Made by a program: the position numbers and the translations under genes. This document shows, piece after piece, positions 18,429 through 33,723 of a stretch of DNA of 64,000 bases (position 1 is the first letter of the stretch; each line of letters starts with the position of its first letter). This DNA comes from a virus (lineage: Duplodnaviria > Heunggongvirae > Uroviricota > Caudoviricetes), in the IMG/VR virus record IMGVR_UViG_3300045988_161152; one strand, 5' to 3'. A model generated the notes under the pieces. The model ran no database searches, was not told the origin of the DNA, and worked only from the letters and a program-made list of their open reading frames with translations.

Positions 18429-19016
18429 ATGAAAGGCGAAGTGAAAGAGCGCGGCATGATTTTTAACGATGAGATGGTCCGGGCAATTCTTGGCGGGAAT
18501 AAAACACAGACTCGCAGGATTGTTGAAGAAAAATTCTATGGACGGGCAGTGGCCGCAGAGTTGCTTGCCAAGCATTGTCCATATGGTCAACCGGGCGATC
18601 GTATTTGGGTTCGCGAAACCTACCGGGTACATGGCAAAGCGACGGACGTCGCAACGCTGGTTTATCGCGCAAGCGTGCGTAACTCCTGGACAGAACAAAC
18701 GCACCGGGTTCCGGTCGAGGTTTGTAATAAACCAGTATCAGAAAAGTGGACGCCATCAATTCACATGCCGCGCTGGGCATCGCGCATTCTTCTGGAAATT
18801 ACCAACGTGCGCGTTGAGCGGTTGAACGATATCAGCGAATGCGATGCAAGGGCTGAGGGCGCACCAACAGAATCGACCCTCATTGGCGATAAGCATTACC
18901 CAAGTTTCCGTAGCCTATGGAAATCAATTTATGGCGAAGATAGTTGGAACGCTAATCCTTGGGTGTGGGTAATCGAGTTTAAGCGTATTCAGGGGGCAAC
19001 CAGTGAGCAAAATTAA
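18429..19016 (+). CDS. ASCH-domain protein (YqfB-like)
   Basis: MIFNDEMVRAILGGNKTQTRR and C-terminal WVWVIEFKRI resemble E. coli YqfB; start may be ATG 18456. Confidence 0.6.
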   Translation: MKGEVKERGMIFNDEMVRAILGGNKTQTRRIVEEKFYGRAVAAELLAKHCPYGQPGDRIWVRETYRVHGKATDVATLVYRASVRNSWTEQTHRVPVEVCNKPVSEKWTPSIHMPRWASRILLEITNVRVERLNDISECDARAEGAPTESTLIGDKHYPSFRSLWKSIYGEDSWNANPWVWVIEFKRIQGATSEQN

Positions 19017-19707
19017 CTATCAAGAACTGCGCGAGGCGGCGGAACAGGCAACGCAAGATGAATGGGTAGCATATATTTTGCCGGGTCATAACGGCATTTA
19101 TCCTGCGCGCACGTCTGAGGGTAGGCATTGCGGATACTTTATTGACTGGCCTGGCATTGATGGACAAAGGAATGCTGGTGCCAATGCCCGTTATATCGCG
19201 GCTATCCCACCAAAAGTTGCGCTGGCGCTACTGGATAAAATTAAGCACCTGGAGGACACAAATATTGATGCCACATGCCGTATTGCGGAGTTTGAGACTA
19301 ATCTCGCGGCGCTGGTGGCAGAGAACGCCGGGCTGAAACACGCAATGGCCGTAACTCTTGAGCATGTGTCGGTCACGGATGCAGGGCAGGCTGGTGTTGC
19401 TGCAATGATTATCAACGATGCCCTATACCACAGCGAAACTCCAGCTACCGATGCTTTTCTGGCTGAAATTCGTGCGGAAGCACGCAACGAGGGGATTAAC
19501 TATACCGCCAGCCGTCTTGCTGCTGCGTTCAATCACGGATTTATCAATAAGTCTTTGCGTGAAGTTTTCGACGTTACACGCATGATTTTGTCAGCGAAAG
19601 AAGAGTTGGCTAATGAAGCGCATCCGATTGATGGCCTGTCTGGTGAATATGCGGAGAAATCCCTTGAAGAATGGGCGGAACAGATTCGCAAAGGAAGCAG
19701 CCAGTGA
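19003..19707 (+). CDS. Mosaic paralogue family member A
   Basis: 234 aa; shares MSKINYQELREAAEQA with 21002 and PATDAFLAEIRA plus a ...QIRKGSSQ tail with 19991. Confidence 0.6.
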   Translation: MSKINYQELREAAEQATQDEWVAYILPGHNGIYPARTSEGRHCGYFIDWPGIDGQRNAGANARYIAAIPPKVALALLDKIKHLEDTNIDATCRIAEFETNLAALVAENAGLKHAMAVTLEHVSVTDAGQAGVAAMIINDALYHSETPATDAFLAEIRAEARNEGINYTASRLAAAFNHGFINKSLREVFDVTRMILSAKEELANEAHPIDGLSGEYAEKSLEEWAEQIRKGSSQ

Positions 19708-19994
19708 ATATCGACACGACAATAACGATCGATACGCTCCTAAATACCGGTCTGGCACTTCTCGGTTGGCTTTACATCATGTCCCGTACATGGCGATGGC
19801 TGGGTTCCATTTTCCTAAAACAGTGGAAAAAACGGCGCAAACAGGAACTACGCCAGAAGGCATTAGAAGCGTTCTATGACGCATTTGAGCTTAGCCGCAT
19901 TGAACCAGGTACAACAGCCAGGATAGCGACAAAAGGCGACCTGATGATAGTGATGTTCCGACAGGAGAGAGCAGAGAAAGGGGAATCAGCATGA
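19704..19994 (+). CDS. Small membrane protein
   Basis: GTG overlapping the upstream stop (GTGA); hydrophobic segment LLNTGLALLGWLYIM. Confidence 0.45.
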   Translation: MNIDTTITIDTLLNTGLALLGWLYIMSRTWRWLGSIFLKQWKKRRKQELRQKALEAFYDAFELSRIEPGTTARIATKGDLMIVMFRQERAEKGESA

Positions 19995-20704
19995 AATTTT
20001 CCAAATTTTCTGAGTTGGTGAATCGTATTTTGTCCAACAACCACAGCCATCGTCGCGATATGGATGTAACAATCGTTGTTCATTCGCCTGGCAGCATTGG
20101 TTCAACACCTTCAGTTGAGGTTCAGTCAATTCACGCTGGTTTTGATTGGGATTCCGGGAAAGTGCTGATTTTCCCATCACAGCCACTGACCACGCTAACA
20201 CCAGAACAGATTACTGATATCACTGATAGTGTGCGCAAAGGTCAGTCTTGGCACGCATATCAGGAATACAAGAAGCATCAAGAGCAGTTGGAAAAATTGT
20301 CGATTGAACTGGATGCCGCAAAACAGCGCATTGCAGAGCTGGATGGTAATCGCACGGCGCTGGCAGTGGAGAATGCCTCAATGAAGCTGTTTATCAGGGG
20401 CTGTTGCTACGTGTTTGATGGCCAGCAGGATGAAATATCTGATGCGTATATCTGCGCAACAGACGGAGGGATGCCGCAAATTCCAGCCACCGACGCTTTC
20501 CTGGCTGAAGTTCGGGCGCAGGGGGTGGATGCTGCTATAGAAGCTGCAAAAAATCTGGTGGCCCAAGAATATGAGTATAAGGATTTCAAAGCGGCGCAGA
20601 GTGATTGCTGTATGCACCCTGGTTCAGACCGGGTAGGGAAGGTTGAAATGACTGAGTGGTTAGTTGACTTTGCTGCCCAGCTTCGCAAAGGAGGCAACCA
20701 GTGA
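19991..20704 (+). CDS. Mosaic paralogue family member B
   Basis: 237 aa; ATGA overlap with upstream stop; shares blocks with member A. Confidence 0.6.
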   Translation: MKFSKFSELVNRILSNNHSHRRDMDVTIVVHSPGSIGSTPSVEVQSIHAGFDWDSGKVLIFPSQPLTTLTPEQITDITDSVRKGQSWHAYQEYKKHQEQLEKLSIELDAAKQRIAELDGNRTALAVENASMKLFIRGCCYVFDGQQDEISDAYICATDGGMPQIPATDAFLAEVRAQGVDAAIEAAKNLVAQEYEYKDFKAAQSDCCMHPGSDRVGKVEMTEWLVDFAAQLRKGGNQ

Positions 20705-24164: not shown

Positions 24165-24187
24165 TTAATGTTTCACTGAAACATTAA
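24165..24187. repeat. Perfect 23-bp palindrome TTAATGTTTCACTGAAACATTAA
   Basis: 11-bp arms around a central C; overlaps the stop of the small minus-strand ORF. Confidence 0.5.
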
Positions 24188-24321
24188 GTAAGCCAGTGCA
24201 TAATTCCATTTTTTACTGACCTTAAAAGCAAAATCAAAACGATGATGAGGATAATAGCCAGAATCTGGCTAATAATAGGCGCATCTAAAAATGCACTCAG
24301 GAACTGAAAAAAAGCGTTCAT
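24184..24321 (-). CDS. 45-aa single-pass membrane peptide
   Basis: MNAFFQFLSAFLDAPIISQILAIILIIVLILLLRSVKNGIMHWLT; AGGA about 10 nt upstream of the ATG; sits in an AT-rich non-coding island. Confidence 0.35.
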   Translation of the reverse strand: MNAFFQFLSAFLDAPIISQILAIILIIVLILLLRSVKNGIMHWLT

Positions 24322-25183
24322 TCAGGTGGTTCCTTGTCAAATGTAAAGGTGCACTTGCTCACGTTGACGTAGAAACCCAACCCCTATATAGTTGGATTCG
24401 GTGAATGAAAGTCGTTAACGTGAGCTTACGGCACATGTTTTCGGAAAAACATCAGGGAACGGCTAATTCCTTGATGCGGGTGGGGTCTGTAATACAGACC
24501 CTATCTATTAACGTCATGATTGCATCTCAAATTTTCTCCTTATCTTCAATTAATCTACATTCATTTCATCTGTTAGCCACCACAATATGTAGAAAATGGC
24601 CCTCTTGCAAGTGCATAACTTTGTGGATAACTCAGGAAGGAAAAAGTGGCTTTCGCGCACCTTCGGTCAGACAAGGTGTCCGGGAAAGTCAACGCAAAGA
24701 AAAAAATTGTTAAAAATAACGTTTGTTGGAATTGTATATTTTTATCCCCTTCAATGGTTAGCATTCCATTAACATCTTTTTTTAGAGACAGAAAAACATA
24801 TCGTAACAACATATATACAGTATTAAGAGGCGAGTATTATCCTGCGGTGGGAATTCTGGGCGCTGTTAGATTCGACTTTCTCAGCAGGATTACATCGTCA
24901 ACTTGCGACGTTGCCGTATGACTTTCGTGTAATAGGTGACAATGATGCGGCTAGTGAGTTACTTGTGAAGTTTTTCGGAAAAGGTTTTGTGGCCTCGGAT
25001 CTTGATGAGCTACAGCAACATGAAGTGTCTAATTTGATTTTTAGCCATAGCCAATAAGCCTCCCTCCTCCATCAAGGCCACAATTTGTGACCTTAAACAA
25101 TTTGTTTTCTGCTTTTTCTTATTTGAGAAAATAACGTTGTTGACAGCTAATAGGCTCGTTGTTGTTATACATGCCTGTATAGA

Positions 25184-25540
25184 TTATGACCGTAAATTAT
25201 TAGCGGATTTTAAGCCATATTCACCGTTGTAGAAATTACTCATGTTCCATTCATTAGGAAGTTCTTTTCTGTCCAATGTATAGTGGCGCACGATATAACG
25301 ATCTTCATCTTCTTCGATGGACAGGCGGACATAGCCAATGTGGATCACCGATACGGGCGGTGTTCGTATTGCATAGATGTCGCGGAGATATACCGGTAGC
25401 TCGACAAATGCATCAGGTGCATCTGTGATGCTCGTTTTTTCACAGTATTCATATAACGCATCGTTGATATCGTTAAGAGATTCATGATCGTATATTTCCA
25501 GGTAATTACCGCGATCGCGATGGTACTCGATTTTAGCCAT
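25184..25540 (-). CDS. Hypothetical protein, second gene of a two-gene minus-strand module
   Basis: 118-aa ORF; start abuts the stop of the upstream 194-aa gene. Confidence 0.55.
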   Translation of the reverse strand: MAKIEYHRDRGNYLEIYDHESLNDINDALYEYCEKTSITDAPDAFVELPVYLRDIYAIRTPPVSVIHIGYVRLSIEEDEDRYIVRHYTLDRKELPNEWNMSNFYNGEYGLKSANNLRS

Positions 25541-26125
25541 TCAAAATCCCCTGTTATCGTTTTGCATTTCTCTAATCCGGTTCAGAACTACTTCATGCTG
25601 GGCTTGGATAGCGGCTTTTTCGTTTTCAAGTCGGGCAATAGACATCTCTAATTCTTTGCTGTACCAGGCGAGTTGGGCCAGGTTCATCCGGTTGTGGTCG
25701 AGAGTTGGAGACACTTCGACGCGCTCCCTTTCTTCCTGCTTTAATGAGAAGAGATTCATCTCATCCCTAGAGGAAAATTCAGCAACAATTTCTTGTTGAT
25801 GATCCGGTCGCTGCGGCATCCTCGCCAGTATAAATGGCGGTTCTTTTGAAAACATGAATGTCGGTTCAGAACGTGTTTTCACCCATCTAGCCTGCTGTCT
25901 TTCGGCAAGTTCACAGGCTTCATCATAGTTATTTGCCAAACCAAGCACGGATGGGCGGTCCCACGCGCCACCATTCAGACAATAAACAACAATTTTCCCG
26001 TCATGTTCTGTAACCCCATAGGGATGGTCCCACCAGGCGTCCAGCTGAGCTTTAGAGCGTTTCTCGTTAGGAGTGCAGTCAAAATTTTTGGGCAATACAG
26101 GATCGAGAGGAATGCGATTAGGCAT
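25541..26125 (-). CDS. Hypothetical protein with C-terminal coiled coil
   Basis: 194-aa ORF transcribed divergently from humD. Confidence 0.55.
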   Translation of the reverse strand: MPNRIPLDPVLPKNFDCTPNEKRSKAQLDAWWDHPYGVTEHDGKIVVYCLNGGAWDRPSVLGLANNYDEACELAERQQARWVKTRSEPTFMFSKEPPFILARMPQRPDHQQEIVAEFSSRDEMNLFSLKQEERERVEVSPTLDHNRMNLAQLAWYSKELEMSIARLENEKAAIQAQHEVVLNRIREMQNDNRGF

Positions 26126-26260
26126 AGCTAATTCCTTATTAACTGATTGGCAACGAGGTTACGCTGATCCGTTGGTGATGAATAGTAGCAAAGAGCACAA
26201 AATCATCAGCGGTGGTTGATGTACGTAACGCGTTTGCACCAAAGGTGTCTCTTTAATGTA

Positions 26261-26280
26261 TACTGTATAAATGAACAGTA
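26261..26280. promoter_or_regulatory. LexA box (SOS operator) overlapping the humD promoter
   Basis: TACTGTATAAATGAACAGTA: perfect CTGT-N8-ACAG about 20 bp upstream of the humD ATG and overlapping a TATAAAT -10. Confidence 0.8.
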
Positions 26281-26299: not shown

Positions 26300-26689
26300 A
26301 TGGGCTTCCCTTCTCCTGCGGCGGATTATGTTGAAAGCCGAATTTCTCTTGATCAGCAACTAATCAGGCATCCATCAGCAACCTACTTCATGCGGGCAGC
26401 TGATAGCCATCACCGTGAGGGAATATTGCAGGGTGCTTTGCTGGTGGTTGATTCCTCGCTTACTCCGGTTGATGGTTCTCTGCTTGTCTGCGCTATGGAG
26501 GGTGAATATCGCATAAAGAGATACCGAAAGTATCCGCGCCAGCACCTGGAGGATTTAAGCACCGGGAAGAAAGAGGCGTTACCAGTAGATGACGATGGTT
26601 ACACGGGTAGTAATGCTGTTTTTGGTGTGATCACTCATGTCATCAATGATGCCCGAAGTGGGGAATTTGATGATTGTCCGGTGATTTAA
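26300..26689 (+). CDS. humD: UmuD-prime homologue HumD
   Basis: 129-aa ORF with GAGGTGA RBS directly downstream of the LexA box; position before phd-doc as in P1; UmuD' relation is from recalled P1 annotation. Confidence 0.75.
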   Translation: MGFPSPAADYVESRISLDQQLIRHPSATYFMRAADSHHREGILQGALLVVDSSLTPVDGSLLVCAMEGEYRIKRYRKYPRQHLEDLSTGKKEALPVDDDGYTGSNAVFGVITHVINDARSGEFDDCPVI

Positions 26690-26755: not shown

Positions 26756-26761
26756 GTGTTT

Positions 26762-26983
26762 ATGCAATCCATTAACTTCCGTACCGCGCGCGGCAACCTT
26801 TCTGAAGTGCTCAACAATGTTGAAGCCGGGGAAGAGGTTGAAATCACCCGCAGAGGCCGTGAGCCAGCAGTAATTGTCAGCAAGGCTACTTTCGAAGCCT
26901 ACAAAAAAGCGGCGCTGGATGCTGAATTTGCATCCCTGTTTGACACCCTGGACTCCACCAACAAGGAACTGGTTAACCGATAA
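26762..26983 (+). CDS. phd: Antitoxin Phd
   Basis: 73 aa ([16 protein letters not shown]...); ATG overlaps the doc start. Confidence 0.9.
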
Positions 26984-27363
26984 TGAGACATATATCACCG
27001 GAAGAACTTGTTGCGCTTCATGATGCGAATATAAGCCGCTACGGCGGCCTGCCGGGAATGTCTGATCCGGGTAGGGCAGAGGCCATTATCGGGAGAGTTC
27101 AGGCCAGAGTTGCCTACGAAGAGATCACCGACCTTTTCGAAGTCTCCGCCACCTACCTGGTGGCTACAGCGAGAGGGCATATATTCAATGATGCCAATAA
27201 GCGTACCGCGCTAAACAGTGCGCTGCTATTTCTACGCCGTAACGGGGTGCAGGTATTTGATTCACCTGAACTGGCAGACCTTACCGTAGGCGCTGCGACT
27301 GGCGAGATATCTGTATCTTCTGTCGCCGACACGTTACGTAGATTGTATGGTTCTGCGGAGTAG
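26983..27363 (+). CDS. doc: Toxin Doc (Fic-fold kinase)
   Basis: 126 aa; Fic-like motif [11 protein letters not shown]. Confidence 0.9.
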
Positions 27364-33534: not shown

Positions 33535-33723
33535 ATTAAGGGTTATTGAATATGATCAATTTACCTGTAAATCCATACAGTTCAATACCTTAGCAGGTCA
33601 AATAGTGACCACTTGATCATTTGATCAAGGTTGCGCTACGTAAAATCTGTGAAAAATTGGCGGTGTTAGTCCTACAGATTTCGCGTAGCGCACTTAGCAC
33701 CACCAATCAATCAGAGGTGAAAA

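Follow-up and report, generated by a model that had tools for sequence, protein, structure and literature searches.

The window (the whole 64,000-nt stretch of DNA analysed here) represents a P7/SJ46-type P1-like phage-plasmid, showing 98% DNA identity to the P7, SJ46, and P1 records that carry lxr, upf94.2, and upf93.6. As proposed in the first-pass annotation, two minus-strand ORFs encoding proteins of 194 aa and 118 aa lie divergent from humD, and the locus comprises the following genes and signals:

25184–25540, minus strand: 118-aa gene, homologue of P7 Upf93.6 (ORF; P7 annotation; phrog_5797)
25541–26125, minus strand: lxr, 194-aa ORF, homologue of P1 Lxr and P7 Upf94.2 (annotated matches in P7, SJ46, and P1)
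25547–25552, minus strand: Shine-Dalgarno sequence AGGGGA of the 118-aa gene, within the end of lxr (read from the sequence)
26300–26689, plus strand: humD, encoding a UmuD'-like protein of 129 aa, the divergent neighbour (Peptidase_S24, E = 5.7e-9; annotated as humD in P1, P7, and SJ46)
26756–27363: phd-doc, after humD

Based on sequence comparison, the 194-aa gene can be identified as lxr of P1 ("LexA regulated function", YP_006568; upf94.2 in P7), and the 118-aa gene as upf93.6 of P7. The lxr and upf93.6 locus is already catalogued, with both genes uncharacterised, and is not new as a locus. Synteny with the P1, P7, and SJ46 records places lxr divergent from humD in a P1-like genome, and the pair occupies the margin of a previously described variable region (pap-lxr, termed "RD-5" [PMC6906374]); hot, lxr, and humD are also listed among variable regions (PMC9603915). 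The region is present in 264 of 5426 complete E. coli genomes (about 5%), with 280 of 283 matching places located on plasmids. The lxr stop codon TGA (25543–25541) directly abuts the ATG of the 118-aa gene (25540–25538), forming TGAATG, and this junction, together with the internal Shine-Dalgarno sequence, makes the co-transcription and translational coupling suggested for this co-directional pair plausible.

The 194-aa protein shows full-length homology to the P1 Lxr family (PHROGs phrog_6164: residues 1–194, E = 1.7e-134) and, apart from its C-terminal tail, is near-identical to P1 Lxr (through residue ~178). Compared to P1 Lxr and P7 Upf94.2, the gene, its position, the divergent humD, and the LexA box are the same (~98% DNA identity), whereas the last ~14 residues differ from those of P1 Lxr, and homology between P1 and the window breaks at about 25591, inside the 3' end of the gene. 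In P1, lxr is followed by a convergent hot gene with a late promoter, whereas the window contains the co-directional 118-aa gene instead. The conservation of Lxr as a protein in diverged elements (58–79% identity) shows that lxr is a real gene, and it was scored as non-essential for lytic growth in P1 CRISPRi (PMC10695390). The protein consists of a conserved N-terminal domain (about aa 1–130; hereafter, N-domain) and a lineage-specific C-terminal coiled-coil helix (aa 149–192), and its AF2 model has a pLDDT of 89.6. PDB searches with single sequences and profiles returned no match, Foldseek found none for the Lxr fold, and the comparison of 95 Lxr family members to Pfam produced only scattered coiled-coil noise. 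A reading of conserved Lxr residues as a Cys-His-Asp enzyme was dropped because a supporting fold match was absent. The first-pass annotation had found no assignable motifs in either product; in agreement, Pfam, NCBIfam, and PADLOC gave no significant match for the two proteins, and PHROGs returned families of unknown function only.

The 118-aa protein matches phrog_5797 over residues 1–118 (PHROGs, E = 3.8e-77), the same gene being found at the same position as P7 upf93.6, with nothing substantive different; P7 carries a copy of IS903 about 260 bp past the 3' end of the gene. The protein is small and acidic (pI 4.8, which is also the median pI of its family), and its conservation in diverged elements (54–58% identity) again supports a real gene. 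Many P1-like plasmids of E. coli and Salmonella carry a 100% identical copy. The AF2 model has a pLDDT of 67.7 and gave no convincing fold match. Members of this family are also encoded on IncN conjugative plasmids, adjoining ssb and a TrfB/KorA-like regulator gene, and on Salmonella ccdAB plasmids; on both, the homologue stands behind unrelated genes, and the 320-aa gene upstream of the Salmonella homologue shows no relationship to Lxr. A family profile search recovered about 20 small relatives as well as long BspA-type LRR proteins, the latter being taken as compositional or repeat artefacts, and the similarity of the 118-aa protein to an Ead/Ea22-like ORF in the window (19003–19707; E = 0.015) is probably due to chance. 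The 118-aa protein is a member of a second family of small acidic proteins, separate from Lxr.

Comparison of the window with a locus that carries lxr alone (L043) delimited an optional segment, which includes a promoter pointing toward the pair:

25111–25553, no strand assigned: optional 443-bp cassette (blastn of the window against L043)
25140–25168, plus strand: convergent sigma-70-like promoter TTGACA-17-TGTTAT with an upstream TG (PWM score 14.3)

The cassette spans the 118-aa gene in full, together with the final 4 codons of lxr on one side and, on the other, 73 bp of 3' flank in which the convergent promoter is located; in P1-like elements with lxr alone, 18 bp occupy this position. Among 50 close relatives, the region downstream of lxr is occupied by the 118-aa gene in 33, by a convergent hot gene in 6, and by neither in 11. 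Judging from these alignments, the 118-aa gene represents an optional cassette whose insertion point is the extreme 3' end of lxr. Its co-occurrence with lxr is not obligate: P1 and numerous further elements carry lxr but not the 118-aa gene (17 of the 50 close relatives and nearly all distant ones), and the 118-aa family also exists without lxr. Linkage of the two genes is seen in both the E. coli P7-type and the Salmonella-type lineage, which have diverged, and this could reflect functional interplay rather than independence.

The first-pass annotation had also noted an antisense promoter facing the 3' end of the pair, and a strong consensus match was confirmed there. The PWM score of the convergent promoter equals the maximum of 300 random 231-nt background windows, and transcription is predicted to start near 25175, which is 9 nt outside the stop codon of the 118-aa gene. 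This promoter lies inside the 443-bp cassette and travels with it, and no equivalent was found beside homologues elsewhere. The predicted antisense RNA (25175–25445) is no more structured than shuffled sequences (z = 0.52) and has no match in Rfam. Antisense control of the pair, although possible, is thus not indicated by the comparison. A terminator-like hairpin with a T-run (25419–25431) would be a possible end point for an antisense RNA of about 260 nt.

At the other end of the pair, the 174-bp intergenic region between lxr and humD contains a single good LexA box and promoter candidates on both strands:

26261–26280, no strand assigned: LexA (SOS) box TACTGTATAAATGAACAGTA, assigned to humD (pattern match; annotated in P1 and P7)
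26234–26264, plus strand: candidate humD promoter TTGCAC-19-TATACT (PWM score 8.4; both hexamers conserved in intergenic variants)
26182–26209, minus strand: best candidate lxr promoter CTGATG-16-TACTAT with an extended -10 TG (TGcTACTAT, 26190–26182; based on conservation)

The box had been described as a perfect 20-bp site about 140 bp from the pair. Its distance (136 bp from the lxr ATG at 26125) and its arms (both pentamers of TACTGTATAAATGAACAGTA are perfect) agree with this description; the full site matches the consensus TACTG(TA)5CAGTA at 17 of 20 bases. The box lies 20 bp from the humD ATG (26300) and, as had been stated, overlaps the humD -10 (TATACT of the candidate promoter). About 0.06 exact 10-base-arm matches are expected per 64 kb, and the looser pattern CTGT-N8-ACAG was observed three times in 64 kb (0.66 expected); the P1 and P7 GenBank records annotate the same position as a LexA site.

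One explanation, which we consider unlikely, is an SOS-regulated damage-response module, the reading of the first-pass annotation and the reasoning behind the P1 gene name: humD and the divergent lxr operon would both be repressed by LexA at this shared box, and the two proteins would act after DNA damage, e.g., with HumD and host UmuC, RecA, or the replisome. The P1 record labels the box "regulatory region of lxr and humD", and a minus-strand promoter-like site (TTCACC-18-TATACA) with a PWM score equal to that of the other lxr candidate overlaps it. The gene neighborhoods fit such a role, with DNA-metabolism accessory genes adjoining lxr both here (humD) and in P1 (hot, a theta homologue). 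Furthermore, the Lxr homologue of SSU5-like phage-plasmids is divergent from an operon encoding a gp32-like SSB, an exonuclease, and RecA, and a Citrobacter plasmid carries its homologue 4 kb from umuDC. The conservation of the box, however, follows humD: in a comparison set of 64 related viral contigs, it was found in all 52 in which humD is adjacent and in none of the 12 without humD, always at 21–22 nt from the humD start, with conserved arms and a variable centre. Salmonella-type elements lacking both humD and the LexA box have a different promoter in front of lxr (TTGTCA-17-AATTAT), and no LexA box was detected near homologues in Klebsiella, Pseudomonas, Salmonella-type, or alpha-proteobacterial elements, nor was an alpha-proteobacterial LexA box found upstream of the Rhodopseudomonas-type homologue. 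A LexA-like CTG-N10-CAG motif (CTGATGCATCTACCAG) in front of the Klebsiella homologue matches poorly and is probably due to chance.

The lxr promoter candidate overlapping the box is broken in natural variants, with an indel in the -35 and loss of the -10 (TGTACA, TGCACA, CGTACA), whereas TTTGTGCnCTTTGCTACTATTCATCACC is unchanged across 23 intergenic variants, and no promoter-like element on the lxr side other than TGcTACTAT is invariant. The PWM score of this distal candidate (7.3) is below the background median (8.0), and its predicted start near 26175 would place the centre of the LexA box near -95. The box appears, on comparative grounds, to belong to humD rather than to the lxr pair, and because it tracks humD and the invariant extended -10 lies about 50 bp past it, SOS control of the pair is not supported. 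It is possible that LexA affects lxr from about -95 or via the divergent humD promoter. The same arrangement is known from umuDC, mucAB, and P1 humD, in which a canonical LexA box covers the promoter of a UmuD'-like gene; this fits humD in the window, whereas the pair shares only the intergenic region. Of the general proposal of a damage-responsive or antisense-controlled accessory function, the accessory pair beside SOS-controlled humD and the consensus promoter facing its 3' end were retained, but neither mode of control is indicated by the comparison of relatives. No published expression or function of lxr was found in the searchable literature (the P1 genome and HumD papers lie outside it).

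The N-domain is far more widespread than the P1-like elements. It was identified in at least 871 protein clusters from plasmids, ICE-like elements, and phage-plasmids across alpha-, beta-, and gamma-Proteobacteria, and the family occurs on 900 plasmids, 564 of which are conjugative. Homologues share 50–65% identity from Enterobacteria to Bradyrhizobium, and the domain (about 125 aa) is marked by invariant WWD-P, CLNGG-WDR, and QRPD patches. Acidity is a uniform feature of the family (median pI 4.9, net charge about -6, as bulk rather than surface charge), for which there is neither a Pfam family nor a solved relative. Several gene contexts are of an establishment type: in alpha-proteobacterial elements, the homologue lies between traA/traCDG/SNase and ArdC/ParB_N; in broad-host-range plasmids, it is near ArdC, SNase, and RepA; and it also occurs as the last gene of a long co-directional series of small genes. 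Neither a constant neighbour nor a conserved small partner gene was found beside the N-domain homologues when these were looked for. The N-domain is a stand-alone, highly conserved acidic domain of mobile elements.

That Lxr is a DNA-binding regulator or plasmid-maintenance factor with an AP2/integrase-arm-like beta3-alpha fold and a coiled-coil dimer, the 118-aa protein being unrelated cargo, seems improbable to us. NCBI labels homologues as "DNA-binding protein", the homologue and the beginning of a serine resolvase gene overlap in broad-host-range Pseudomonas-type plasmids, and an H-NS gene adjoins the homologue in one plasmid. Against this, no NCBIfam or Pfam model stands behind the label, the resolvase adjacency is limited to one plasmid group within a family without a constant neighbour, and the acidity of the family described above is at odds with binding to DNA. 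AP2/ERF and integrase arm-type domains, which consist of a three-stranded sheet and a helix, matched with marginal scores, and Lxr has an extra hairpin and helix, is acidic, has no basic residues noted on the sheet strands, and gave no Foldseek match.

We regard it as highly improbable that an antisense RNA controls the pair, or the 118-aa cassette with its convergent promoter, as a toxin-antitoxin or abortive-infection module adding an addiction or defence function to phd-doc. In favour of such a module, two small abutting genes lie beside phd-doc, a very strong convergent promoter and a potential RNA end accompany the cassette, and a 118-aa homologue is near ccdAB on Salmonella plasmids. Against it, each gene is widespread without the other, and PADLOC, Pfam, and NCBIfam gave no toxin, antitoxin, or defence match. 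Type I toxins differ from the two products, which are soluble and acidic. Moreover, the promoter has no counterpart beside homologues elsewhere, the RNA is no more structured than shuffled sequences and is without an Rfam match, and CRISPRi knock-down of P1 lxr had no effect.

The explanation that we tentatively prefer, at somewhat less than an even chance, is that lxr and upf93.6 form a LexA-independent accessory operon encoding protein-binding factors for host interaction or establishment. In this operon, transcription of lxr would start, without involvement of LexA, at the weak and conserved extended -10 promoter of this gene, and the 118-aa gene would be translated by coupling to lxr. Both products would bind proteins rather than DNA, their targets presumably being conserved host components or defence factors, and would provide the mobile element with non-essential functions in host interaction or establishment. 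The coiled-coil tail of Lxr in the P1 group may serve oligomerisation, and the convergent promoter of the cassette may dampen or time expression by transcriptional interference or antisense RNA.

We infer the protein-binding establishment role from gene context and composition. In these respects, the pair resembles the class of PsiB, ArdA/ArdB/ArdC, and SSB (PMC11541004): the proteins are small, acidic, and stand-alone, are found only on mobile elements, and, like leading-region proteins, are dispensable for the core functions of the element. Homologues of Lxr or of the 118-aa protein adjoin ssb and an ArdK-like gene on IncN plasmids or are flanked by traG/SNase and ArdC/ParB_N, contexts that, given their gene content, would represent leading regions; elsewhere, Lxr homologues stand in contexts unrelated to leading-region genes. 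In contrast to this likeness, leading-region proteins have no sequence or fold similarity to the pair, and P1-like elements are not conjugative; the analogy to conjugative establishment genes is indirect because P1 enters by injection and not by conjugation. Neither protein matched a known anti-defence or SOS-inhibitor family in Pfam, NCBIfam, or PADLOC, and the families of the pair were not found in the supplements of PMC11541004. A more specific version of the preferred explanation, which is doubtful at present, is that the N-domain represents an undescribed Proteobacteria-wide family of stand-alone acidic effectors that bind a highly conserved host protein (e.g., RecA, SSB, or a further component of DNA metabolism or defence) and so promote establishment or persistence of the element, as a functional PsiB/Ard analogue with a new fold, with the 118-aa protein as a second such factor.

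These results bear on how the two genes are annotated. The name "LexA regulated function", which has been copied into many annotations, goes back to the shared intergenic region alone, and the comparison of relatives argues against it. The Lxr N-domain constitutes a large conserved family restricted to mobile elements, and its label "DNA-binding protein" is doubtful because both families are uniformly acidic. Because anti-defence and anti-SOS functions have lately been traced to families of this type from plasmid establishment regions, it would be reasonable to include the Lxr N-domain in screens.

The 194-aa and 118-aa ORFs abut on the minus strand, divergent from humD, which encodes a Peptidase_S24 protein (domain match). 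The first-pass annotation described this arrangement correctly, including a LexA box about 140 bp from the start of the pair and over the humD -10, and an antisense promoter facing its 3' end:

25111-25553: cassette comprising the 3'-terminal four codons of lxr, the 118-aa gene, and 73 bp of flanking sequence with the convergent promoter
25140 (start of TTGACA), plus strand: convergent promoter, TTGACA, 17-nt spacer, TGTTAT preceded by TG, facing the 3' end of the pair
25184..25540, minus strand: 118-aa ORF, abutting the 194-aa ORF
25541..26125, minus strand: 194-aa ORF (lxr)
26261-26280: LexA box TACTGTATAAATGAACAGTA, with 20 bp between it and the start codon of humD (26300) and 136 bp to that of the 194-aa ORF

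The 194-aa stop is fused to the 118-aa start (TGAATG), and the Shine-Dalgarno sequence of the 118-aa gene (AGGGGA) lies inside the 194-aa gene, six bases upstream of this junction, so co-transcription and translational coupling of the pair are plausible. The convergent promoter is a strong consensus site, with the PWM score of the best of 300 random background windows.

The locus itself has been described and annotated before, and its identity is near-certain. Phage P7, Salmonella phage SJ46, and several P1 isolates match the region at 98% identity (megablast). The genes are named upf94.2 (194-aa) and upf93.6 (118-aa) in P7, and both encode hypothetical proteins in SJ46. For P1, the reference record names the 194-aa gene lxr ("LexA regulated function") and labels the box "LexA binding site in the regulatory region of lxr and humD". 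The first-pass annotation had independently arrived at the reasoning behind the name. P1 Lxr is near-identical to the window protein up to residue ~178, whereas the C-terminal tail differs: P1 homology ends at ~25591 (window coordinates), within the 3' end of lxr, and beyond it the place of the 118-aa gene is taken in P1 by hot, a convergent gene (theta homologue) that has a late promoter. Published work treats pap-lxr as a hot-spot for recombination in P1-like plasmids ("RD-5", PMC6906374; variable region 8, PMC9603915). No function is recorded for lxr in the literature on this variable region, and the gene was scored non-essential in a P1 CRISPRi screen (PMC10695390). Among 5426 complete E. 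coli genomes, 264 carry the region, nearly always on plasmids, and 99 of these contain ≥80% of the 1189-bp region including the 118-aa gene.

The arrangement had suggested a damage-responsive pair, and a true SOS-regulated function together with humD is one rival reading. In 64 viral contigs with a gene for an Lxr relative, we recorded humD, the downstream gene, and the box (CTGT-N8-ACAG ≤400 bp upstream of lxr). The box was found in all 52 loci with humD divergently adjacent, but in none of the 12 without adjacent humD (Salmonella-type P1-like elements [Lxr 65–68% identical] and SSU5-like phage-plasmids among them). Likewise, no LexA-type box was found upstream of the Klebsiella, Pseudomonas-type, Citrobacter, Enterobacter, and alpha-proteobacterial homologues. 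The box-to-humD-start distance is constant (21–22 nt), and the arms are kept with a variable centre (TTCATTTATA, TTTATCTGTA, TTTATCCGTA, and others), as would be expected for an operator under selection. In an alignment of 23 distinct variants of the humD-lxr intergenic region, the humD promoter (TTGCAC ... TATACT), which the box overlaps, is conserved. Given this co-occurrence and promoter conservation, the box is assigned to humD as its predicted operator; the comparison lends no support to LexA control of lxr, and we regard a shared SOS function as unlikely.

On the lxr side, the block TTTGTGCnCTTTGCTACTATTCATCACC was invariant in all 23 variants and contains an extended -10 (TGcTACTAT, 26190-26182) pointing towards lxr. 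This is the predicted lxr promoter, which would place the box centre at about -95 relative to the lxr start. Just one promoter-like site directed towards lxr overlaps the box (TTCACC-18-TATACA), and in natural variants its -35 carries a 1-nt indel and its -10 is lost. Neither candidate scored above background (PWM 7.3 vs. background median 8.0), so the assignment rests on conservation. Salmonella-type elements have a different lxr promoter of their own (TTGTCA-17-AATTAT), without the box.

The P1 record NC_005856 places a predicted "PhumD" inside the lxr CDS, ~480 bp upstream of humD (87080-87106; 3206-3232 in our P1 locus, L001); its sequence is a poor promoter, and the conserved TTGCAC...TATACT under the LexA box is the better humD candidate. 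The motif CTGT-N8-ACAG occurs three times in the window (0.66 expected). The second good box (CTGTAAATCCATACAG, 33565-33580) lies just upstream of 73-aa and 343-aa ORFs, the latter matching Cre in length. A LexA site overlapping the P1 coi promoter has been reported (PMC4713147), and the box at 33565-33580 is probably this site. The third match (CTGTTAGCCGCGACAG, 2479-2494) has a GC-rich centre and probably arose by chance.

Lxr consists of a conserved N-terminal domain of ~125–130 residues (Lxr-N) and a long C-terminal helix, the latter limited to the P1 group and some Klebsiella plasmids. Lxr-N is 50–65% identical from Enterobacteria to Pseudomonas, Burkholderia, Xanthomonas, Sphingobium, Bradyrhizobium, and Mesorhizobium, with invariant positions including W31, W32, D33, P35, C49, L50, N51, G52, G53, D56, R57, Q78, R85, and P107. 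A profile search recovered at least 871 clusters, all without a Pfam domain, and relatives occur on 900 plasmids, 564 of them conjugative (tblastn). The AF2 model of Lxr is confident (pLDDT 89.6; helix, three strands, long helix, hairpin, helix, 44-residue helix). The 118-aa protein belongs to a shallow family (~20 clusters of 100–120-aa proteins), and its low-confidence model (pLDDT 67.7) had no convincing fold match. NCBI labels Lxr homologues "DNA-binding protein", which would suit a DNA-binding regulator or maintenance factor. However, no NCBIfam or Pfam model backs this label and the members of both families are acidic throughout (Lxr-N: median pI 4.9, net charge ~-6; 118-aa family: median pI 4.8, net charge ~-8), which speaks against it; we consider such a factor improbable.

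Elsewhere in the window, 234-aa and 237-aa ORFs (19003-19707 and 19991-20704, plus strand) look like paralogues with a common PATDAFLAE(I/V)RA motif, the first being Ead/Ea22-like (PF13935). The weak similarity of the 118-aa protein to this ORF (E=0.015) is probably due to chance. A strongly hydrophobic 45-aa ORF (MNAFFQFLSAFLDAPIISQILAIILIIVLILLLRSVKNGIMHWLT, 24184-24321, minus strand; SJ46 hypothetical protein J46_0085) without a Pfam match looks like a small membrane peptide, possibly similar to a type I toxin.

Of 50 close relatives (Lxr ≥90% identical), 33 carry the 118-aa gene behind lxr, six a convergent hot gene, and 11 neither. Pairwise alignment with an lxr-only element showed a clean indel, with 25111-25553 (443 bp) replaced by 18 bp. 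The 118-aa gene (58% identical) also follows lxr in three Salmonella-type loci, indicating that the linkage is old. On Salmonella ccdAB plasmids, members of its family follow unrelated genes of 81 and 320 aa; on IncN conjugative plasmids (38% identity), they come directly after ssb and the gene for a TrfB/KorA-like regulator. This stretch lies between repA and stbC, which we take to be the IncN leading/CUP region. Relatives of lxr mostly stand alone, with no shared gene neighbour found; each gene is widespread without its partner. Antisense control, proposed earlier, has the strong convergent promoter in its favor, but no comparable promoter was found beside 118-aa homologues elsewhere, and the predicted antisense RNA was no more structured than shuffles and had no Rfam match; a toxin-antitoxin or abortive-infection module under such control is very unlikely. 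Downstream of the cassette lies an imperfect hairpin (GGTCACAAATTGTGGCC, 25060-25110, minus strand) without a clear T-run, which is perfect (GGCCACTAATTGTGGCC) in elements lacking the 118-aa gene behind lxr and may be the operon terminator.

The common denominator of Lxr-N relatives is a stand-alone gene in accessory/establishment regions of mobile elements. In alpha-proteobacterial conjugative elements, it lies between traA/traC-traD-traG/SNase genes and those for ArdC, DUF736, DUF4326, WGR, and ParB_N. Broad-host-range plasmids of ~47 kb (hosts: Pseudomonas, E. coli, Salmonella, Burkholderia, Brucella) contain a tight string in which Lxr-N is preceded by a 66-aa gene and followed by a serine resolvase (L003 7790-9040; L004-L006), the resolvase start overlapping the Lxr-N stop, with ArdC-like, SNase, RepA, and Fic/VbhA genes nearby; this string is the only context hinting at an operon partner. 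Elsewhere, Lxr-N closes a long array of small co-directional genes (one element), lies amid hypothetical genes (IncHI/IncFIB plasmids of Klebsiella, Citrobacter, and Enterobacter), or is a lone gene with a gp32/exonuclease/RecA operon on one side and a HEPN-Toprim gene on the other (SSU5-like Klebsiella phage-plasmids). The latter gene (HEPN_Toprim_N/HEPN_RiboL-PSP; L007-L010 8498-9763) is a candidate defence nuclease, split in two in one isolate. Accessory/establishment regions of this kind are enriched in anti-defence and anti-SOS genes (PMC11541004); the Lxr-N family is not listed in the supplements of that study. In a P1-like metagenome contig with P1-type humD-lxr-hot order (L023), Tad2-like (anti-Thoeris, PF11195) and dUTPase genes (68-745) are located ~1 kb beyond doc, showing that the lxr neighbourhood does take up anti-defence cargo.

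Our tentative explanation is that the products of the known lxr and 118-aa genes are dispensable factors that would bind proteins rather than DNA, with a role in host interaction or establishment, although we hold this functional part to be rather doubtful. The gene lxr would be expressed from its own weak promoter with the 118-aa gene coupled to it, the C-terminal coiled coil would oligomerise Lxr, and the convergent promoter may modulate expression. The analysis is of corrective value in that the LexA link and the "DNA-binding" label of lxr are both weakly founded, and it draws attention to the Lxr N-domain, a large, uncharacterised family confined to mobile elements.
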